From an uncultured Candidatus Saccharibacteria bacterium (GTDB lineage Bacteria > Patescibacteriota > Minisyncoccia > Minisyncoccales > JAHCRE01): a DNA stretch of 51,061 nt. Shown piece after piece: positions 1,146 through 51,061 of the stretch (its first letter is position 1; every line of letters starts with the position of its first letter). The notes beneath the pieces were generated by a model, which worked only from the letters and a program-made list of their open reading frames with translations, searched no databases and had not been told where the DNA came from. Made by a program: the position numbers and the translations under genes. The stretch is from positions 1-51,061 of the forward strand of contig CAYHAF010000001.1 in NCBI GenBank assembly GCA_964354555.1, written 5' to 3'.

Positions 1146-1226
1146 ATACAGGGCAAGCCAACAACTTAATATTGAGCTGACGGTCGGATTTGAACCGACA
1201 ACTTTACCCCCACACCTTAATTTCTG

Positions 1227-1383
1227 AGCCAGCGGTCGGAATCGAACCGACGGCCTACCCCGCCCTCTAAGCAAGCCGATGGGCAGAATCGAACTGCCAT
1301 CGATGGTTTACGAAACCATTGCTTTACCATTAAGCTACATCGGCATAAAGGGCGGGGTTGCTCTACCACTGAGCTATCCCAGC
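1227..1383 (-). pseudogene. middle split tRNA-like shell; anticodon arm replaced by the PE-B hairpin that contains tRNA-Thr
   Basis: GCTGGGA-TA-GCTC-AGTGGTA-GAGC-A then ACCCCGCCCT (1349-1358 on plus) ... AGGGCGGGGT (1257-1266), then AGGCC-GTCGG-TTCGATT-CCGAC-CGCTGGC-T. No anticodon loop. Acceptor only 5/7 pairable. Confidence 0.5.
1274..1344 (-). tRNA. tRNA-Thr(CGT)
   Basis: GCCGATG TA GCTT AATGGTA AAGC A ATGGT TTCGTAA ACCAT CGAT GGCAG TTCGATT CTGCC CATCGGC T. All four stems pair. 71 nt, no encoded CCA. Confidence 0.9.
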
Positions 1384-1532
1384 ATAAAAGGTGTGGGGGC
1401 TACGTTCCACTTCGCGAAACAGTTGCTCTACTATTGAACTACATCGGCACTATACGAAATTTATTTTATAAGTTTCGTCGTGCCCGATCAAAAATTTAAG
1501 TAATTAAATTTTTGATATAGGGCAAAAAATTA

Positions 1533-6252: not shown

Positions 6253-6681
6253 GCTGTCCTAGTAAGTTGAGTGATTGCCCTAAACTTTCTGAAAAGAAAG
6301 TCGGGAGGAAAGTCCGAACTCTCCCCCGCCCTCTAAGCCTTATGTTTCTCCATCCATGTAAATCAACACAGGGCATAGAGGGCGGGGTAAAAAGATAGTG
6401 GCTAACAGCCATCCACCGTAAGGTGCGAGGTGCGAACAGAGACGCTGAGAGACGAAAGTCTCGAAGCGCCCAGTCGAATGACTGGGCGAGCCGAGCACAT
6501 AACTTGTTATGTGCTCGGGTGAAACGGCTAAATCCTTATTGAGTGCAAGAACAAACCAAAAGTTATCCGAATATGGAAAACTTTTGTGAAAAGTAGTTCG
6601 CTTGAGTCAAACTGTAAGGTTTGACCTAGAGTAATAATCACTTTAAAACAGAATTCGGCTTACGGACTTACTAAGGACACC
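6253..6681 (+). ncRNA. rnpB: RNase P RNA (bacterial type A-like), carrying an inserted palindrome
   Basis: GGGAGGAAAGTCCGAAC (P4 5' strand, 6303-6319) and ACAGAATTCGGCTTAC (P4 3' strand, about 6649-6664). P1 pairing TGTCCTAGTAAGT (6255-6267) with ACTTACTAAGGACA (6666-6679). GNRA-type loops GTAA and GAAA. Confidence 0.85.
6324..6387 (+). repeat. PE-B hairpin inserted in the RNase P RNA gene
   Basis: Perfect 12-bp arms CCCCGCCCTCTA/TAGAGGGCGGGG. Left arm is 15/15 and right arm 15/16 identical to the arms flanking tRNA-Thr (1258-1272, 1342-1357). Confidence 0.8.
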
Positions 6682-6734: not shown

Positions 6735-7184
6735 TTAAATCAGTTTTTGAACCTTGTCTTTGCTGTCCAGGGCTTGGTTTGCCAGCCTATCGGCTTCTTG
6801 ATTTTTTTCCCGCGAGATTAATTTAAATTTTATCTTTTTAAAATCAATTTTTAAATTCCAAGTTTCCAAAAATAAAGGTTGTATTTTTTCATCTAAAATT
6901 TTATATTCTCCGTTTAATTGATTAATTAAAAGCTCGGAGTCTGATTTTAATTCGATTTCTGTATTTTTAGCCAACTTGTTTCCGAAAAGAGCTTTAAACT
7001 TTTTTAAGGCTAAAATAACCCCTCTATACTCGGCTTCATTATTGGTAATGTTTTCACCCAAATATTCGGAATATTCCTTAAAAATCTGGCCTTTTTCATT
7101 GCAAAAAACAAAGCCCACTGCCGAAGGACCAGGATTTCCACGGGAGCCGCCATCAACAAATATTATAACTTTCTTCACCCCCAC
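6735..7184 (-). CDS. rnhA: ribonuclease HI
   Basis: 149 aa, DGGSRGNPGPSAVG motif. The GTG start lies inside the PE-A arm (7178-7187). Confidence 0.85.
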   Translation of the reverse strand: MGVKKVIIFVDGGSRGNPGPSAVGFVFCNEKGQIFKEYSEYLGENITNNEAEYRGVILALKKFKALFGNKLAKNTEIELKSDSELLINQLNGEYKILDEKIQPLFLETWNLKIDFKKIKFKLISREKNQEADRLANQALDSKDKVQKLI

Positions 7185-7318
7185 ACCAAACGAGCTTATG
7201 TTTTAAGACTTTTGAGAAGTCTTAAAACTTTTACTCGTACTTTAAATTTATTATTTTATCCTTTATTTTCCCCACACGAAATTTTTTCTATGAACTAAAG
7301 CTCGTTATGGTGTGGGGG
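7178..7318. repeat. PE-A clamp element filling the rnhA / DHH-gene spacer
   Basis: CCCCCACACCAAACGAGCTT (7178-7197) versus AAGCTCGTTATGGTGTGGGGG (7298-7318). Inner hairpin TTTTAAGACTT/AAGTCTTAAAA (7201-7227). Confidence 0.8.
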
Positions 7319-7326
7319 TTCATATT

Positions 7327-8475
7327 TTATCTTACTTCTTTTATCAAACAATTTTTGAATTTTTCCAATTGCTCATTTTTGACTCTAAAACCCGAGGCCA
7401 GAGCATGTCCGCCATAAGTTTCCAAAAGTCTTGCGCATTTTGCCATCAATTTTACACTATCAAATCTTGAAGGAACCCTAACTGCTCCTTGGCTTTCTTT
7501 TTTGTCAATTCTGAATAAAAAAGTTGGTTTTTGGTATTTTTGACAAATCCTTGAAGCGGCTGGTCCCAAAAGCGCAAGAGGCCAACCATTTCCTCCCTCA
7601 AAAACTATCTCCTCTTTTGGTTTTTTAACAATTCTATCTTCTATTTCTCCGACTATTTCCTTAATTCTTAAATGTTTTTGCTGGCTTTTTTTAAAAAGTT
7701 CTTCTGCCATTATTTTAGCTTTTCTTTCGTTCTGTTCCGTTAAAAGAAGATAAGCTTCGTTCAAATGGTCTTTTTTTTCAGCAGCATTTAAAGAAGAGAT
7801 TACTTTTTGAGTAAATTCCTGGAAATTTTTATAATTTTTAGGAGGATCAATAAAGAAATAAACTTTTAAACCAGGCCGCCAGGTATTTCTTAAAGAATTC
7901 AACCCTTCCTCTATAAAAAGATTGTTTTCCTCAATTCGCGGCATCAAATCAGCAATAGTTGCAAGAGCCACTAACTCAAGAAAATTATCTCTTAATTTTT
8001 GAGTTAATTTTTCTTTTAATAGAATTTCTGAAAGTTTGAAAACTATTCCAACCGTTGCTAAGCCCTTAAAAGAATACTTATCATTTTTTTGTTTTGGATC
8101 GACAACAACAGAAGCCTGAGGAACCTTACCCAAAATCTGATGGTGATCAATGATAATCACCTCAAAACCTAATTTCTTGGCAATTTTTACTTCTTCGAAA
8201 TTTCCTATCCCAAGGTCTAAGGTAATAAATAAAGCTGGGGAAAATTCTTTCAAATAATCTAATCCTGTTTTTGTTATTCCATATCCTTCTGTTTCTCTGT
8301 CAGGAAAATAAACAGCGGAAATTTCTCCGCCTAAATTTCTAATGCTTTCTTTTAGTATAATAACCGAAGTTACGCCGTCTAAATCAGCATCTCCGTAAAT
8401 AATGAATTTTTCTTTGTTTTTTACAGCCTTTAGGATTCTGTTAGCTACTTTTTGAAGATTTTTAATCTTTGGCAT
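7327..8475 (-). CDS. DHH/DHHA1 phosphoesterase (RecJ-like core)
   Basis: 382 aa. DADLDGVTS, IIIDHHQ and GGHALASGF motifs. Confidence 0.75.
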   Translation of the reverse strand: MPKIKNLQKVANRILKAVKNKEKFIIYGDADLDGVTSVIILKESIRNLGGEISAVYFPDRETEGYGITKTGLDYLKEFSPALFITLDLGIGNFEEVKIAKKLGFEVIIIDHHQILGKVPQASVVVDPKQKNDKYSFKGLATVGIVFKLSEILLKEKLTQKLRDNFLELVALATIADLMPRIEENNLFIEEGLNSLRNTWRPGLKVYFFIDPPKNYKNFQEFTQKVISSLNAAEKKDHLNEAYLLLTEQNERKAKIMAEELFKKSQQKHLRIKEIVGEIEDRIVKKPKEEIVFEGGNGWPLALLGPAASRICQKYQKPTFLFRIDKKESQGAVRVPSRFDSVKLMAKCARLLETYGGHALASGFRVKNEQLEKFKNCLIKEVR

Positions 8476-13994: not shown

Positions 13995-14073
13995 TGGCGG
14001 ACCCAAGGGGATTTGAACCCCTGATCTTCTCCGTGACAGGGAGACGTGTTAGACCAGGCTACACTATGGGTCC
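13995..14073 (-). tRNA. tRNA-Asp(GTC), CCA encoded
   Basis: GGACCCA TA GTGT AGCCTGGTCTA ACAC G TCTCC CTGTCAC GGAGA AGATC AGGGG TTCAAAT CCCCT TGGGTCC G CCA. Confidence 0.9.
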
Positions 14074-14098
14074 ACAAATGCCGGCGGTCGGATTTTCA

Positions 14099-14153
14099 CC
14101 CTGTTAAATAATTTCTCTTTTGGGAAATTCCCGCTTTGCGGGATTTAACAGGG
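14099..14153. repeat. PE-E palindromic element in the T loop of the outer shell
   Basis: CCCTGTTAAAT ... CCCGCTTTGCGGG ATTTAACAGGG. The same arms and inner hairpin occur at 45018-45081. Confidence 0.75.
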
Positions 14154-14199
14154 CGGGCCGACGACCTAGCGCTTACTCGCCCCCACACCATAATTATTG

Positions 14200-14385
14200 T
14201 GCCAGAGGTGGGGGTCGAACCTTCACCCGCCTAAATTTCTAATTATGGCTGCGAGAGGATTTGAACCTCTGACCCAACGCTTATGAAACGTTCGCTCTAC
14301 CACTGAGCTACGCAGCCAAAAATTTTTGGCGGGCAAGCGACCTCTCGCTTATGAAACGAATGCTCTACCACTGAGCTACTCTGGC
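14200..14385 (-). pseudogene. middle split tRNA(CAT)-like shell, interrupted at the T stem by PE-F arms enclosing tRNA-Met
   Basis: GCCAGAG TA GCTC AGTGGTA GAGC A TTCGT TTCATAA GCGAG AGGTC, then CCCGCC (14328-14333 on plus) ... GGCGGG (14226-14231), then GAAGG TTCGACC CCCAC CTCTGGC A. Acceptor 7/7, residual T stem only 3/5. Confidence 0.6.
14246..14317 (-). tRNA. tRNA-Met(CAT), elongator or Ile2-type, innermost gene of the nest
   Basis: GGCTGCG TA GCTC AGTGGTA GAGC G AACGT TTCATAA GCGTT GGGTC AGAGG TTCAAAT CCTCT CGCAGCC A. Canonical, 72 nt. Confidence 0.9.
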
Positions 14386-14529
14386 CGAATTTGGTGTGGG
14401 GGTGAAAAACGAATGCTCTTCCGGGGTGATTTTTAACGCCTCGCAGGGACGCTCAACTAAATCACCCGTGTAAGACAAGCAGTTGTCTTACACCCACTGA
14501 GCTACGCCGGCCCAGACCAAACTCTCTTG

Positions 14530-14600
14530 TTGCGGGGCTAGGAATTGCACCTAGGCTTCCAGCTTATGAGACTGGCGACCTACTACTGGTCCACCCCGCT
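14530..14600 (-). tRNA. atypical tRNA(CAT) with 1:72 A-A mismatch (possible initiator)
   Basis: AGCGGGG TG GACC AGTAGTA GGTC G CCAGT CTCATAA GCTGG AAGC CTAGG TGCAATT CCTAG CCCCGCA A. The T loop has TGC instead of TTC and there is no GGG/CCC anticodon-stem signature. Confidence 0.6.
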
Positions 14601-14672
14601 ATTTTACCTTGTTAGAAAAATTTATTAACAGAAGGGTAATTAAAATTTTAACAGGAAATAAGAATTAAGTCA

Positions 14673-14840
14673 ACCCCGCACTAATTTTGCCATAACATTC
14701 CTTGCAGCGCACGATGAGCGAATAGCTCAGTCCGCCAAAGGCGGACAATACTATTCGTATTAAGTGCGCTGCGATAATTTAATCTAATTCTGTAATGATT
14801 AAAATACGATACAATTGGAAAAGCAAAATTAGTGCGGGGT
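14673..14840. repeat. 168-nt clamped structured element (18-bp perfect arms ACCCCGCACTAATTTTGC)
   Basis: Arms 14673-14690 / 14823-14840. Nested inner helices GCAGCGCAC/GTGCGCTGC (14704-14712 / 14764-14772), CGAATAG/CTATTCG, TCCGCC/GGCGGA. Confidence 0.7.
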
Positions 14841-34811: not shown

Positions 34812-34817
34812 ATTTTT

Positions 34818-34904
34818 CCTACCAATTACGAATTTTTACGAATTTACGAATATTCTGTTTTTTCTTTTTAATTCGTATATTCGTACTGATTTGTAATTCG
34901 TAGG
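34818..34904. repeat. PE-G: TACGAAT x3 / ATTCGTA x3 long AT-rich palindrome between rpsD and rpoA
   Basis: The arms begin right after the rpsD stop and end at GTAGGAAAAATATG of rpoA. 18 nt GTAATTCGTAGGATGTTA is identical to 50971-50988. Confidence 0.75.
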
Positions 34905-34907
34905 ATG

Positions 34908-35537
34908 TTATCTTGAATAAAACTCAAAAATTGATGCAATTTCTACTGGAACGATTATGTCTTCCAGCGTCGGCTCTTCTTTCAATTTTCCTTCAAATTT
35001 TTCAACATTAAACTCAAGCCAGCTCGGAACTTTAGCTTTTTTAACAATACTCTTAATATCTTTAAAAACAGCTTTTTTAGTCTTTTGGGGCTTAATAGAA
35101 ATAATATCGCCTTTTTTTAATTGACGGGAGGGAATATTTGTCGGCTTACCATTCACTAAAAAATAACCATGCGAAACTAACTGCCGGGCTTGGCTCCTCG
35201 ACGCAGTAAAACCTAATTTAAAAACGACGTTATCAAAACGCGATTCTAAAATTTTAACCAACAAGTCCGAGGCGTTTTCTACCTTTCCCCGTTTTTTTAA
35301 TACTCCTTTTACGTAATTTTTAAACTGCCTTTCTTTTAAATTATACAAATTTTTCAACTTCTGTTTTTCTCTCAACTCCCGCCCATATTCAGAAAGAGGA
35401 GTTGGTCTCCTTTTCCCTTTTTTGCCTGGCGGATAAGGTTTTTTAATCATCTGACATTTCTGGGTAACGCAACGCTCCCCTTTCAAAAAAAGCTTGACTC
35501 CCATTCTTCGGCAAATTTTACATTTAGGATCTGACAT
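34908..35537 (-). CDS. rpsD: 30S ribosomal protein S4
   Basis: 209 aa. N-terminal CxxC..C..C zinc motif and S4 domain. Confidence 0.95.
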   Translation of the reverse strand: MSDPKCKICRRMGVKLFLKGERCVTQKCQMIKKPYPPGKKGKRRPTPLSEYGRELREKQKLKNLYNLKERQFKNYVKGVLKKRGKVENASDLLVKILESRFDNVVFKLGFTASRSQARQLVSHGYFLVNGKPTNIPSRQLKKGDIISIKPQKTKKAVFKDIKSIVKKAKVPSWLEFNVEKFEGKLKEEPTLEDIIVPVEIASIFEFYSR

Positions 35538-38329: not shown

Positions 38330-38478
38330 CCTGGTAGTAGAAATTAGACTAAAATTAATTTTAACGTTGCTGCCCGCCCCGTAGTAGAATTTCGACAGGA
38401 GCGAAGCTCTTTATTTACCCGTAGGGTAGTCGAAATTTCACTACGGGGCCCGGCAGCAGTCGAATTTTCACTACCGGG
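38330..38478. repeat. nested PE-C palindromes (hairpin inside hairpin) filling an entire intergenic spacer
   Basis: Outer arms 38330-38349 / 38459-38478. Inner arms 38369-38396 / 38429-38457. Core hairpins GAGC/GCTC and TACCC/GGGTA. Confidence 0.75.
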
Positions 38479-43218: not shown

Positions 43219-43968
43219 CTAACTAATTATTTTTATTATTTTAATGAATTCCTCAGGATTCAAGGAAGCACCGCCTACTATAAATCCATCTACTCTCGCA
43301 CTTTTAAAATAATCACCGACATTTTTACTGTTCAAGCTCCCACCATAAAGAATCCTCAAATTGCCTGAGATTTTATCAGAGTAAAGCTCCGATATTATCT
43401 TTTGGATTAATGCGACCATCTTCTTAGTTTCCTCTGACTTACATGGATTTCCGGTTCCGATGGCCCAAACGGGTTCATAGGCAATTACAATATCCTTTAT
43501 TTGGTCTACAGAGATTCCAATCAATCCTTTTTCTATTTGGATTGTTAAGACGCTCTCAGTTTCTCCTTCTTTTTTTTCTTTCTCTGTTTCTCCGATGCAG
43601 AAAATTGGCTTTAATCCTGCCGAAATCGCGGTTTTTATCTTTTTATTTATTATCTCATTAGTATCGCCAAAATGAATTCTTCTTTCCGAATGGCCTAAAA
43701 TCACATAATCACAGCTTAAATTTTTGAGCATAAATGGAGAAATTCCGCTAGTGAAGGCACCTGATTTTTCCCAGAAGCAATCCTGAGCACCAAGCTTAAT
43801 ACAAGATGACCCTGAGTTAACTGCGGGTAAAAATACAAAGGGTGGACAGATAACTGTCTCGGTATTTTTAATATTAGCTAACCCTTCTTTGACTGAATCA
43901 AAAAGCTGCTTCGCTTCAACCAAAGTTTGTGGATTCATCTTCCAATTTGCAACGATTAATGGTTTCAT
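43219..43968 (-). CDS. tpiA: triosephosphate isomerase
   Basis: 249 aa. ANWKMN, GHSERR and AYEPVWAIGTG motifs. Confidence 0.95.
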   Translation of the reverse strand: MKPLIVANWKMNPQTLVEAKQLFDSVKEGLANIKNTETVICPPFVFLPAVNSGSSCIKLGAQDCFWEKSGAFTSGISPFMLKNLSCDYVILGHSERRIHFGDTNEIINKKIKTAISAGLKPIFCIGETEKEKKEGETESVLTIQIEKGLIGISVDQIKDIVIAYEPVWAIGTGNPCKSEETKKMVALIQKIISELYSDKISGNLRILYGGSLNSKNVGDYFKSARVDGFIVGGASLNPEEFIKIIKIIS

Positions 43969-43971
43969 AAA

Positions 43972-44008
43972 TTATTCGTATATTTGTAGTTATTCGTAAT
44001 TCGTAGGG
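43972..44008. repeat. PE-G half element (three ATTCGTA units, one orientation only)
   Basis: ATTCGTA at 43974-43980, 43992-43998 and 43999-44005. Starts right after the galT-like stop and ends 3 nt before the tpiA ATG. Confidence 0.6.
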
Positions 44009-45106
44009 CTATTGTTTTCTTAAATATTCGGCGGCTTTTTCCGGCTCAATGGTTGAAATCTCCATTCGAGTTCCGATTTCAAATCCTGCCCAAACAGAAG
44101 TTTTTGGTAAAATTGTCCAATGCCAATGATAATAATCGTATTTTCTGCCATCGCATGGAGCAGTATGCAAATAAAAATTGTAAGCAGGATCGTTAAGGGC
44201 TTTAAAAATTTTACCTAAAGCTGCTTTAAAAGCTTGAGCCAGCTGCCATTTTTCTTTTTCGGTAATTTTTTCGAAATAAGGTAGGTGTTTTTTGGGTGAA
44301 ATTATCAGTTCAAAAGCTGATTTTGATGCAAAGGGACATAGGACTAAAAAATCTTTATTTTCAAAAACAATTCTTTTCTTTATCTTCTTTTCCCATTTAT
44401 CCATCTCACAATAAATGCATTTTTTTTCTCTTTTAAAATATCTCTTAGAATTGGAAAGGCCTCTGGTCAAATCAACATCAACCAAAGGAGTGGTGATGAT
44501 TTGGGAATGGGGATGAAATATGGAAGCCCCGGATTCTAAACCATGGTTATGAAATATTGAAATATGATTAACAAATGGTTTTACCATCAAATCTAAATAT
44601 CTCTGATGATAAATATCAATTACTTCCTTAACTTTTTCTAAACTAAGCAGAGCAAGTGATTTCTTATGATTCCTGGTAACAACTATCTCGTGAAAACCTG
44701 CGGCATTTATCGTTTCATAAAGATTGCCTTCTATTTTCTTGTCTAGCTTAGAAGATGGCAAAAAAGCGGGAAATTTATTCGTAATCGAAATAGTCGTCCA
44801 TTTTTTTTGTTCCTTCCCCCTGACCTTTTTCCCTCGAGAAAAAACTAATGTCGCATCTTTTATAATGTCTTTTTTGCAAAAAGGGCAGGTTTCTTTAGAA
44901 AATTCTTGGCTTACTTTTTTTTCTCTTCTAAAGGTTTCGGGTCTCCTCGCCCTGCCTGTAGCAATAACAACCCAGTCTTTTGAGATTAAATCAAGTCTAA
45001 GCTCTGAAGGAAACCTTACCCCGTTAAATACCCCGCCCTTCTGCGAAGGGCTGGGTCCCGCTTTGCGGGATTTAACAGGGTGAATTTTTTTAGGCTTTTT
45101 AGTCAT
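44009..45106 (-). CDS. galactose-1-phosphate uridylyltransferase-like (HIT superfamily)
   Basis: 365 aa. CPFC zinc motif and HPHSQI active-site motif. The first 30 or so codons are encoded by PE-E. Confidence 0.75.
   Translation of the reverse strand: MTKKPKKIHPVKSRKAGPSPSQKGGVFNGVRFPSELRLDLISKDWVVIATGRARRPETFRREKKVSQEFSKETCPFCKKDIIKDATLVFSRGKKVRGKEQKKWTTISITNKFPAFLPSSKLDKKIEGNLYETINAAGFHEIVVTRNHKKSLALLSLEKVKEVIDIYHQRYLDLMVKPFVNHISIFHNHGLESGASIFHPHSQIITTPLVDVDLTRGLSNSKRYFKREKKCIYCEMDKWEKKIKKRIVFENKDFLVLCPFASKSAFELIISPKKHLPYFEKITEKEKWQLAQAFKAALGKIFKALNDPAYNFYLHTAPCDGRKYDYYHWHWTILPKTSVWAGFEIGTRMEISTIEPEKAAEYLRKQ
45018..45081. repeat. PE-E element within the 5' coding end of the galT-like gene
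   Basis: ACCCCGTTAAAT / ATTTAACAGGGT arms. Inner hairpins ACCCCGCCCTTC..GAAGGGCTGGGT (PE-B-like, 45030-45056) and CCCGCTTTGCGGG. Confidence 0.75.
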
Positions 45107-45950
45107 ATTTATGCGTTATGAAATTCCATCTTATTTTAACTAAATCAAGAGCCATTTTAACCATGCTTTTAAATTTTACCTTGCTTTCCAAGTCATTTTT
45201 CCAAAAAATAGGAATTTCTTTTATCTTATATTTTAATTTTTTGGCAATTAATAAGACTTCGGTATCAAAAGAAAAACGCAAAATTTTACATTTCGGAAAA
45301 ATAGTTTCGGTTGCTTTTTTCGTAAAGCATTTAAAGCCGCATTGGCTATCCTGAATTTCCCATAAACCAACGATAATTTTTCTGACTAATTTAAAAACTT
45401 CCCCTGTAAATCTCCTTTGCCAAGGCTGGGGCGGATCTAAAACTGCTCCTTTTAAATCTCGAGAACCAATAACAATGTCAAAACCCTCCTTAAAATAAGG
45501 CCACATTTTTTCAATCTGTTCAAGAGGAGTTGAATTATCAGCATCAGTAAAAATGCGGTAATCACCTTTTGCCTCCAACATTCCTTGGTGGACTCCGAAC
45601 CCCTTGCCTCTTTTTTTAGGAAATTCAAGCAGTCTTAAGTTTTTAATGGTTCGATTCGGCTCACCATTAACCCTGAGCTCTGTCGAAGGGTTAATTTCTG
45701 TCATCAAATTTCTGACAACTTCGCAAGTTTTATCGGTGGAGCCATCAGAAACAACAAGAATTTCAGACTCATAATTCTGTTTTCTTAAGTATTTGTCTAT
45801 TTCTTTTAAAGTCCCAGTCAATCTTTTTTCTTCGTTATAAGCAGGGACAATAACGGAAAGATAAACCCCCACACCATAAGGAGCACTAGCGCCTTCGGCG
45901 CTAAAAGATGAATAATGTGCTCCTTTGGTGTGGGGGTAAATTTCTGACAT
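45099..45950 (-). CDS. family 2 glycosyltransferase (start uncertain: 45950 or GTG at 45872)
   Basis: 283 aa. SVIVPAYNEE and TDADN motifs. Codons 1-26 lie in a PE-A palindrome. Confidence 0.8.
   Translation of the reverse strand: MSEIYPHTKGAHYSSFSAEGASAPYGVGVYLSVIVPAYNEEKRLTGTLKEIDKYLRKQNYESEILVVSDGSTDKTCEVVRNLMTEINPSTELRVNGEPNRTIKNLRLLEFPKKRGKGFGVHQGMLEAKGDYRIFTDADNSTPLEQIEKMWPYFKEGFDIVIGSRDLKGAVLDPPQPWQRRFTGEVFKLVRKIIVGLWEIQDSQCGFKCFTKKATETIFPKCKILRFSFDTEVLLIAKKLKYKIKEIPIFWKNDLESKVKFKSMVKMALDLVKIRWNFITHKYD
45866..45936. repeat. PE-A clamp element at the GT2 gene start
   Basis: CCCCCACACCATAAGGAGCAC / GTGCTCCTTTGGTGTGGGGG with inner hairpin TAGCGCC/GGCGCTA. Confidence 0.8.
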
Positions 45951-50867: not shown

Positions 50868-50873
50868 ATTATT

Positions 50874-50982
50874 CCCTATTAATTACGAATATTTACGAAT
50901 CTACGAATAATTTATGTTAAACTTTTTCTTGGGGGACGAATTAAATAGATTCGCATATTCGTAGTGATTCGTAATTCGTAGG
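50874..50982. repeat. PE-G TACGAAT/ATTCGTA palindrome between rpsH and rplF
   Basis: Left arm 50874-50909, right arm 50949-50982. Starts at the rpsH stop and ends at TAGGGAATAATATG of rplF. Confidence 0.75.
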
Positions 50983-50985
50983 ATG

Positions 50986-51061
50986 TTACCAAACTTCAAG
51001 AATAATCTCTCCTCCTAATCTTTTCTTTCTCGCTTCTTTATTGGTCATCAAACCCTTAGGA
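50986..51061 (-). CDS. rpsH: 30S ribosomal protein S8 (C-terminal fragment; 5' end beyond window)
   Basis: Manual translation ends ...GGEIILEVW-stop. Position upstream of rplF. Confidence 0.8.
   Translation of the reverse strand, partial: PKGLMTNKEARKKRLGGEIILEVW

Follow-up and report, generated by a model that had tools for sequence, protein, structure and literature searches.

Nested tRNA-Met genes in a Patescibacteria chromosome and their probable origin by serial insertion

Introduction

The window described here, a stretch of 51,061 nucleotides (GenBank assembly GCA_964354555.1, contig CAYHAF010000001.1, positions 1 to 51,061 of the forward strand), is a piece of a Patescibacteria chromosome of the candidate phyla radiation (CPR) with about 35% G+C. 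Within a cluster of tRNA genes on its minus strand lies a 433-nt locus (14511-14079), here called the nest, in which an intact tRNA-Met(CAT) gene is enclosed by the two halves of another tRNA gene, itself enclosed by the two halves of a third. The innermost gene is termed Met-D, and the interrupted layers around it are termed shell 2 (Met-B) and shell 1 (Met-A). GC-rich complementary sequences, or clamps, border the inserted cassettes. This article describes the structure of the nest, its simpler forms in related contigs, the clamp elements found in it and elsewhere, and the ways in which such a locus could have arisen.

The tRNA cluster has on one side a gene for 175 aa and on the other a sigma-region-4/HARE-HTH gene of 340 aa. 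Three intact tRNAs are called in it by ARAGORN and Rfam: a first tRNA(CAT), the inner tRNA-Met(CAT) of the nest, and a tRNA-Asp. Shell 2 gives a weak Rfam tRNA match of 29.7 bits at its 5' part.

Architecture of the nest

All 433 nt can be assigned to named segments, with no base unaccounted for. Read 5' to 3', the segments are:

14494-14511, minus strand: 5' end of shell 1 (former tRNA-Met-A), with acceptor strand GCCGGCG, TA, D-stem strand GCTC and D-loop bases AGTGG
14468-14493, minus strand: D-loop hairpin 1, GTGTAAGACAA..TTGTCTTACAC
14423-14467, minus strand: D-loop hairpin 2, GGGTGATTT...AAATCACCC
14403-14422, minus strand: remainder of the shell 1 D loop, 3' strand of the D stem, 5' strand of the anticodon stem (TTCGT) and left junction TTTTCA
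14393-14402, minus strand: PE-A left arm CCCCCACACC, an inverted-repeat end of the GIY-YIG element family
14338-14385, minus strand: 5' part of shell 2 (tRNA-Met-B), with acceptor strand, D arm, anticodon arm (CAT), variable loop and base 1 of the T stem
14328-14337, minus strand: PE-F left arm CTTGCCCGCC
14246-14317, minus strand: innermost intact tRNA-Met(CAT), Met-D
14221-14231, minus strand: PE-F right arm GGCGGGTGAAG
14200-14220, minus strand: 3' part of shell 2, with G, T loop TTCGACC, T-stem strand CCCAC, acceptor strand CTCTGGC and A73
14180-14189, minus strand: PE-A right arm GGTGTGGGGG
14158-14179, minus strand: shell 1, the 4-nt junction CGAG followed by ancestral positions 36-53 (TAAGCGCT AGGTC GTCGG)
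14095-14157, minus strand: PE-E, a palindromic element within the T loop of shell 1, with arms CCCTGTTAAAT/ATTTAACAGGG, then TGAA; a related copy lies at 45016-45085
14079-14094, minus strand: 3' end of shell 1, with AAT, T-stem strand CCGAC, acceptor strand CGCCGGC and A73

Shell 1 is fully paired in its acceptor stem (GCCGGCG/CGCCGGC, 7/7), D stem (GCTC/GAGC, 4/4) and T stem (GTCGG/CCGAC, 5/5). Its D loop holds two hairpins (14468-14493 and 14423-14467), its T loop holds a 55-nt inverted repeat (14099-14153), and the 10-bp PE-A clamp (14393-14402 and 14180-14189) encloses everything further in. Shell 2 has a 7/7 acceptor stem (GCCAGAG/CTCTGGC) and intact D and anticodon arms with the loop TTCATAA; its T stem is interrupted by the PE-F arms, which enclose the 72-nt Met-D. 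The latter scores 72.6 bits against RF00005, whose gathering score is 29, is called as tRNA-Met(CAT) by ARAGORN, and forms a full cloverleaf. It looks like the only functional copy of this tRNA-Met at the locus. RNAfold recovers the nested fold at -189.3 kcal/mol, compared with -132.8 +/- 5.6 for shuffled sequences (z = -10.1), and window positions 14025-14700 are present base for base in an independent Logan assembly of run ERR3804373 (L136). Because of this fold score and this exact independent copy, chance and assembly error are ruled out as sources of the structure.

The loop TTTTCAC of shell 1 is a product of the junction, the CAT anticodon having been split by the insert, and its ancestral 3' anticodon-stem strand is GCGCT (14168-14172), which pairs with TTCGT at 3/5 positions. 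A first-pass annotation of this DNA had listed the segments of the nest, and each is found on the minus strand where it was placed, so the nested locus itself was correctly recognized. The same annotation took shell 1 for a TTC (Glu) scaffold whose stems are all intact and whose every loop has an insert, a reading that must be abandoned: the orthologue of shell 1 is a tRNA-Met(CAT), and the GCGAG strand that had been paired with TTCGT consists of one clamp base plus the junction CGAG. Nor is the supposed variable-loop palindrome an insert, since TAAGCGCTAGGTC represents ancestral tRNA positions 36-48 and is identical in the intact gene of a closely related contig (L087).

Shell 1 also fails as a functional tRNA, having no 7-nt anticodon loop on the ancestral 5-bp stem with a defined anticodon. 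Its residual T loop, TGAAAAT, is found in all five carriers of the nest and lacks T54-T55-C56, whereas intact orthologues have TTCGAAT or TTCGATT. Exact excision of the inserts from shell 1 leaves a 9-nt anticodon loop at best together with the TGAAAAT loop. No normal tRNA is restored, which goes against the multi-intron-like precursor that the first-pass annotation had entertained. When the inserts are removed in silico, ARAGORN calls the shells Glu, Lys or Met, the call changing with the chosen cut points.

Simpler forms of the nest in syntenic relatives

Relatives were taken to be contigs with syntenic homologues of the neighbouring 340-aa protein, and the percentages below are identities of that protein. 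At the position of the nest they carry:

L006 and L094 (77%): a plain intact tRNA-Met(CAT), GCCGGCG...CGCCGGCA, immediately before tRNA-Asp
L004, L005, L092 and L093 (78-80%): the same intact tRNA-Met(CAT)
L087 (99%; flanking DNA 93-96%): the same intact 72-nt tRNA-Met(CAT), GCCGGCG...CGCCGGCA
L089 (87%): anticodon split by the CCCCCACACC/GGTGTGGGGG clamp around an intact tRNA-Met-B (GCCAGAG...); a T-loop palindromic element; no D-loop hairpins
L002 (86%): the two junctions of L089, with a different tRNA-Met (GGCGGGG...) as cargo
L088 (95%): the L089 arrangement plus both D-loop hairpins; Met-B intact; shell 1 decayed (acceptor 4/7, D stem 3/4)
L090 (87%): the 5' half of shell 1 lost
L100 (61%): a 5' remnant only, then a C-rich clamp and a Met-B-like tRNA

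This synteny comparison, of a kind that the first-pass annotation had proposed, yields a graded series from a plain intact gene to the full nest, and the simpler nest stages come from four further metagenome assemblies. The window represents the most elaborate state, an L088-type nest to which a second clamp cassette (CTTGCCCGCC...GGCGGGTGAAG), carrying Met-D, has been added in the T stem of Met-B. The L087 alignment to the window breaks exactly at 14494 and resumes at 14094, both points lying inside the tRNA gene; the 5' end of shell 1 (14494-14511) is identical to the intact L087 gene, and both spacers are identical to those of the window. The 5' part of shell 2 matches the intact Met-B of L088 at 48/48 positions, and L088 is the only relative to share the two D-loop hairpins. 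In the relatives shell 1 has not been kept under constraint, as its 4/7 acceptor in L088, the missing 5' half in L090 and the remnant in L100 attest.

Judged by its intact orthologue, shell 1 is a former tRNA-Met(CAT) gene. The comparison, which is one of sequences throughout, likewise establishes the order of insertion, the ancestry of both shells, and the dispensability and decay of shell 1 in relatives. Several views of the first-pass annotation are thereby borne out: that the two shells are paralogous, here confirmed as tRNA-Met(CAT) genes by the intact orthologue and by the intact Met-B of relatives; that the inserts are insertions of palindromic elements; and, as it preferred, that the shells are relics, given the uninterrupted gene in L087, the decayed shell in L088 and the half shell in L090. 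In L004 (9622-9800; also in L005 and L092) the first tRNA(CAT) is separated from the intact tRNA-Met by a 180-nt insert, richer in GC and containing several hairpins, which L006 and L087 lack.

Clamp elements as a mobile family

The sequences that clamp the nest are not confined to it. The 9-mer CCCCACACC occurs 14 times in the window (allowing one mismatch) against 2.6 expected, and clamp pairs are formed in four places: in two nests (14180-14402 and 1170-1450), at 7178-7318, and at 45866-45936. Ends of the form CCCCCACACC(A)...(T)GGTGTGGGGG are found at four window sites. The PE-A copy at 7178-7318 is flanked on both sides by TGAA, and L004, L006 and L094 have the corresponding empty site with a single TGAA. 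A 166-nt palindromic element at 14674-14839 is flanked by TTGA; its site is empty in L088, where the single TTGA forms the -35 box of the tRNA promoter. Perfect 4-bp flanking repeats accompany 16 of 76 non-redundant CCC...GGG inverted repeats in 63 CPR loci, the duplications observed at clamp elements being TGAA, TTGA, TAAA and CTCG. Occupied and empty sites together show that these miniature elements form a mobile family, whose terminal inverted repeats are the clamps. Conservation from copy to copy is limited to the terminal 10-11 bp; the subterminal sequences vary yet remain complementary, which suggests that formation of a hairpin or cruciform matters.

Some members of the family carry a gene. 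In more distant CPR genomes a single small open reading frame (ORF) lies between CCCCCACACCATAACGAG... and ...CTCGTTTGGTGTGGGGG ends: in L011, in L013 (a decayed copy), in L121, where a polysaccharide operon surrounds it, and in L131, where its neighbours are atpF and atpH. The product, 85-92 aa long, is a GIY-YIG catalytic domain (Pfam E = 4e-15 to 1e-17) and has 280 close homologues; the ORF is the only gene of the full-length elements, which measure about 300 bp. The window copy at 7178-7318 has the same subterminal arms as the GIY-YIG-bearing elements, and in L121 an ORF-less copy is nested, with a CTCG duplication, in the right arm of an ORF-bearing one. Clamps of a second family, CCCCGTAGT, enclose a further GIY-YIG ORF in L088, and an ORF-less copy of this family lies in the window at 38377-38448. 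These arrangements establish an association of clamp elements with GIY-YIG genes. Copies of PE-A and GIY-YIG ORFs were present in distant CPR genomes among contigs searched with the window's PGK protein. Beyond such genomes, a search of viral contigs for CCCCCACACC-N(80-110)-GGTGTGGGGG returned seven unrelated matches, in giant-virus and high-GC contigs, none with tRNA cargo, and blastn of the nest against phage genomes gave generic tRNA similarity only.

Several further observations concern where such elements lie. The copy at 7178-7318 sits exactly at the start codon of an RNase H gene, the TGAA of the empty site being in the same start codon region, and the start codon now seems to be a GTG whose first base is the element's final G and whose TG comes from the duplication. 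Two program-listed ORFs, 44009-45106 and 45099-45950, contain a PE-E-like element (45016-45085) and the PE-A copy at 45866-45936 in their 5' ends; these elements would add N-terminal extensions (HPVKSRKAGPSPSQKGGVFNGV and YPHTKGAHYSSFSAEGASAPYGVGV) unless the true starts are downstream. In L088 (2575-3015) the GIY-YIG ORF with CCCCGTAGT-type arms adjoins an ORF-less palindrome with CCCAGTAGT arms. At the equivalent place in the window the ORF-bearing element is missing, but a copy of the ORF-less palindrome lies elsewhere (939-1020). A bacterial class A RNase P RNA lies at 6259-6678 on the plus strand of the window, opposite to its neighbours, with a score of 89 bits, under the Rfam gathering score of 100. 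One of its helices (6324-6387) is a 64-nt palindrome clamped by CCCCGCCCTCTA; in L087 the same helix is a different, 99-nt clamp element (CCCCCACCACTTTAT), and in L088 and L002 it is a short native hairpin. This variation among relatives indicates that clamp elements also swap into an RNase P RNA helix.

Cargo with the anticodon of the interrupted gene

The tRNA-Met nest is not the only one of its kind. A second nest in the window (1170-1450, minus strand) has an intact tRNA-Thr(CGT) at 1274-1344 inside CCCCGCCC/GGGCGGGG arms; outward from these follow a Thr-type shell without an anticodon arm, PE-A arms, and an outer former tRNA-Thr broken after TTCG. The shell acceptors of this nest are already mismatched. 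The tRNA-Asp genes of L002, L089 and L090 are split inside GTC by a clamp cassette bearing a new tRNA-Asp. In L009 (11925-12450) an intact tRNA-Val(CAC) and a GIY-YIG ORF lie inside another tRNA-Val(CAC), which they interrupt; the outer gene has two hairpins in its T loop and is followed by a 60-nt direct repeat of the T-loop target region. In every case observed (Met, Thr, Asp and Val) the cargo has the anticodon of the gene that it interrupts, and in three nests the break lies inside the anticodon.

Insertion targeted to loops, as the first-pass annotation suggested, is plausible but unproven. In its favour, three independent nests have their cargo cassettes inside the anticodon, at positions 33-36. 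Speaking against it are the innermost window cassette, which lies in a T stem, and the ordinary copies of the same elements, which enter duplex DNA at TGAA/TTGA-like sites with 4-bp duplications.

Other selfish genes and hairpins were noted among the tRNA clusters of related CPR genomes. The L009 hairpin CGCCCAGTCGTATGACTGGGCG recurs in the RNase P RNA region of the window (6466-6487) with one loop base different (A for T). In L017 (12774-14350) an HNH ORF stands beside a tRNA 5' fragment just upstream of tRNA-Thr, and an opposite-strand ORF bracketed by three copies of a hairpin repeat is a candidate IS200/RAYT-type gene. ORFs for 23S-rRNA-intervening-sequence proteins lie between tRNAs in L097 and L100 (2090-2500), and L097 has a LAGLIDADG-like ORF after tRNA-Met, both L097 features falling in the region 7290-7990.

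Genomic context and expression

The minus-strand genes, which make up nearly all of the genes of the window, include MreB, MurJ, LepA, GatA and PGK, the first four being listed as bacterial proteins. The nearest named relatives are Candidatus Staskawiczbacteria and other Parcubacteria. The best PGK match among the genome contigs searched has 62% identity and belongs to Staskawiczbacteria, and no close relative was found by this search. Four features flank the nest:

14674-14839, minus strand: the 166-nt palindromic element, with arms CCCCGCACTAATTTTGC, in the -35 box, where the TTGA duplication regenerates TTGAC
14645-14673, minus strand: TG-extended promoter-like site TTGACT-17-TAAAAT upstream of the tRNA cluster; TTGACT...TAAAAT is also present in L004, L006 and L088
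14530-14600, minus strand: first tRNA(CAT) of the cluster, intact and the same in nearly all close relatives (one mismatch in L088)
13995-14073, minus strand: tRNA-Asp(GTC), called by ARAGORN and Rfam, intact in the window; its orthologue is the cassette-split gene of L002, L089 and L090

Apart from the site at 14645-14673, no strong promoter-like match was found upstream of the nest, nor was there any inside it, which argues for co-transcription of the nest with the cluster. The nest is thus probably transcribed as one RNA from this site. RNase P and 3'-end processing would then release Met-D alone, and the shell halves would be by-products, free to decay. Elsewhere in the window, intergenic arrays of the motif TACGAAT/ATTCGTA, in direct and inverted orientation (34815-34910, 43966-44013 and 50872-50988), may be operator or binding-site arrays.

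Proposed history of the nest

We consider it quite probable that the nest arose by serial insertion and contains three generations of one tRNA-Met(CAT) gene, the two outer shells being relics of earlier genes. A cassette would first have entered the anticodon loop of the resident Met-A; it would have comprised a complete tRNA-Met, Met-B, along with short AT-rich spacers and, as its clamp, a GC-rich 10-bp inverted repeat (CCCCCACACC...GGTGTGGGGG). Further palindromic elements would then have entered the T loop and later the D loop of Met-A. Finally, in the lineage of the window, the T stem of Met-B would have been split by a second cassette (CTTGCCCGCC...GGCGGGTGAAG) bringing Met-D. Such cassettes may be derivatives of the clamp elements in which a tRNA gene takes the place of the nuclease gene, the tRNA acceptor stem joining the cassette ends in much the way that complementary subterminal arms join those of other copies. 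Where a tRNA gene is essential and probably single-copy, insertion would be tolerated only if the cargo replaced the lost function. The matching anticodons would then follow, since only insertions carrying a working tRNA of the same identity would survive; selection, rather than homology-dependent recombination, would account for them. We infer, too, that one machinery moves both the tRNA-bearing cassettes and the other clamp elements, and that its enzyme is the GIY-YIG protein.

From these considerations a broader proposal can be framed, which we offer tentatively and with doubts that slightly outweigh our confidence: that Parcubacteria-type CPR bacteria harbour a new class of miniature mobile element, with 10-20-bp GC-clamped inverted repeats, 4-bp target duplications and, as its sole gene, one for a bare 85-92-aa GIY-YIG nuclease, whose derivatives with a complete tRNA gene in place of the nuclease gene invade genes for the same isoacceptor, often within the anticodon, survive by supplying the function that they destroy, and bring about serial selfish replacement of essential tRNA genes with nested loci as its residue. 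In a bolder form, the small nuclease may recognize the structure-forming ends as hairpins or cruciforms and represent a new kind of transposition enzyme.

A number of observations weigh against this account. The nest copy at 14180-14402 has no 4-bp target duplication (its minus-strand flanks are TTCA and CGAG), nor do the homologous junctions in L002, L088, L089 and L090, and the nest junctions carry odd extra bases (TT+TTCA on the left; CAAG, CGAG or TAAG on the right). Given the missing duplications and the extra bases, the cassettes may have entered by other than the ordinary route. No GIY-YIG ORF was found by phmmer in any frame of the 51-kb window, and the 85-92-aa protein is a bare catalytic domain. 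No prokaryotic transposon family with a GIY-YIG enzyme was found in the literature searched, and we know of none that uses such an enzyme. The intact allele of L087 is nested in a clade of nest carriers, so that either the nest or the intact allele moves laterally. Lastly, the acceptor, D and T stems of shell 1 in the window are perfect, more intact than a neutral relic might be, which could reflect recent gene conversion or weak constraint.

Alternative explanations

Homing followed by gene conversion is a serious alternative to transposition, or a complement to it. Free-standing endonucleases of the GIY-YIG, HNH or LAGLIDADG type would cut conserved tRNA genes, and repair from a donor with a nuclease or clamp cassette and a variant, cleavage-resistant tRNA, when imperfect, would leave the old halves around the new gene; the nest would then spread as a unit by gene conversion across the conserved flanking tRNAs. 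The window is L087-like to 18 nt inside the 5' end of the gene and again from 16 nt before its 3' end, with L088-like sequence between, which is the pattern expected of conversion tracts, and the lack of 4-bp duplications at the nest copies fits as well. So do the tRNA-Val and GIY-YIG gene within the tRNA-Val of L009, with its 60-nt target duplication, the HNH ORF with a tRNA 5' fragment in L017, the LAGLIDADG-like ORF after tRNA-Met in L097, and the precedent of phage T4 SegB, a GIY-YIG homing endonuclease in a tRNA cluster (PMC2330249). Yet the same clamps behave elsewhere like transposons, with 4-bp duplications and empty sites, the window cassettes have no nuclease gene, and homing alone explains neither the inverted repeats around the cargo nor the origin of the first insertion. 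On balance we judge homing an unlikely explanation of the nest, albeit one that deserves attention. An att duplication of the integrase type was rejected, the fragments being nested 5'...3' rather than repeated directly and no integrase being nearby, and so was a group I intron, no Rfam intron family reaching its gathering threshold in the window and the cassettes being too short for a ribozyme core.

The remaining explanations fare far worse. If the nest were a multi-intron or split pre-tRNA, the clamps would align exon ends, and an endonuclease and ligase, or annealing, would produce two or three functional tRNAs. The whole RNA does fold as a nest with the shell stems of the window intact, ARAGORN still calls tRNAs once the inserts are removed in silico, and GC-rich complementary clamps beside tRNA halves resemble the leader pairing of Nanoarchaeum split tRNAs. 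However, the host is a bacterium; a closely related strain has an uninterrupted orthologue, and in others shell 1 is decayed or deleted; exact excision gives the aberrant anticodon and T loops described above; and the Glu or Lys anticodon called by ARAGORN hangs on arbitrary cut points. Inspection of the predicted fold reveals continuous clamp helices with single-base bulges and no bulge-helix-bulge at the junctions, and no Rfam intron family matches the nest, so that splicing appears very improbable. Scarcely better is the prospect that the shells are retained as a folding, processing or protective scaffold for the inner tRNA. Consistent with it, the T stem, variable region and TGAAAAT loop of shell 1 are invariant in 5/5 nest carriers, three of the four carriers with both acceptor strands still present show 7/7 pairing there, and the L088 clamp has one compensatory change (TTCCCACACC / GGTGTGGGGA). 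Against it, L087, L004 and L006 have an equivalent tRNA without any shell, half of the shell is gone in L090 and L100, the acceptor is broken in L088, and the shells of the window and L002, at about 90% identity over only some 75 nt, are not clearly above the 80% of the flanking DNA. As for an assembly artefact, three paralogous tRNA-Met 5' halves within 200 nt are repeated tRNA-like sequence of the sort that might be misjoined; besides the identical sequence in the independent Logan assembly, the graded versions in four other assemblies from different samples and the coincidence of insert boundaries with inverted-repeat ends, not repeat joins, leave this a negligible probability.

Implications

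Under serial insertion, a selfish element could occupy an essential, probably single-copy gene without splicing by bringing a spare copy with it. If the process were general, tRNA genes of streamlined CPR genomes would be replaced laterally and repeatedly, with effects on tRNA-based phylogeny; tRNA annotation would be affected, fragments and split genes being miscalled; and the finding would bear on ideas about the origin of split tRNA genes. The small elements, with their inverted repeats, bare GIY-YIG domain, clear target duplications and empty sites, would then become candidates for a new class of transposable element. In genome scans, a comparison of any nested tRNA locus with its syntenic relatives should precede a proposal of splicing.

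Comparison with known systems

The locus has features in common with several known systems but belongs to none of them. The literature searched yielded no description of nested or split tRNA genes in CPR bacteria, of MITEs (miniature inverted-repeat transposable elements) in Parcubacteria tRNA genes, or of GIY-YIG elements that have inverted repeats and target duplications. Among bacterial elements of the MITE or repetitive extragenic palindromic (REP) type, the Rickettsia palindromic elements sit inside protein and RNA genes. The clamp elements are like this type in their size (20-300 bp), inverted-repeat ends, many copies including ORF-less derivatives, insertion into genes, those for structured RNAs among them (here tRNA genes and a helix of RNase P RNA), as well as in their target duplications and their empty sites in relatives. 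They are unlike it in that some copies carry a complete tRNA gene that replaces the one they disrupt, and in that the only ORF between their ends is a bare GIY-YIG domain rather than a known transposase.

The split, tri-split and multi-intron tRNAs of archaea (Nanoarchaeum, Caldivirga and Thermoproteales) are spliced at bulge-helix-bulge motifs, and each is the sole copy of that tRNA. They share with the nest tRNA pieces beside GC-rich complementary sequences and breaks in or near loops, but in the nest the pieces are not restorable, are dispensable in relatives, and surround a complete replacement gene. Phages and islands that target tRNA genes bring the 3' part only, use tyrosine integrases, and leave direct repeats kilobases apart. 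In both cases the invader restores the interrupted tRNA gene by supplying replacement sequence; in contrast to the phages and islands, the cassettes hold a whole tRNA gene in about 110 bp between inverted repeats, with the old halves flanking it.

Group I introns occur in the anticodon loops of bacterial tRNAs, some with homing-endonuclease genes (PMC3984707). Insertion into the anticodon loop, homing-type nucleases and harmlessness to the host are common to both systems, whereas the nest has no ribozyme detectable by Rfam, its cassettes are 110-220 nt, and a spare tRNA gene at the DNA level takes the place of splicing. SegB is a free-standing GIY-YIG homing endonuclease encoded in the tRNA gene cluster of phage T4 (PMC2330249). 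There, as here, a GIY-YIG gene lies among tRNA genes and neighbouring tRNAs are inherited with the nuclease, an arrangement paralleled in L009, where nuclease and tRNA-Val lie together inside an old tRNA-Val. SegB, however, is a phage protein of full homing-endonuclease size that lacks inverted-repeat ends and brings about allele replacement rather than nesting, whereas the elements described here combine an 85-92-aa nuclease with 10-20-bp inverted repeats and 4-bp duplications in a cellular chromosome.

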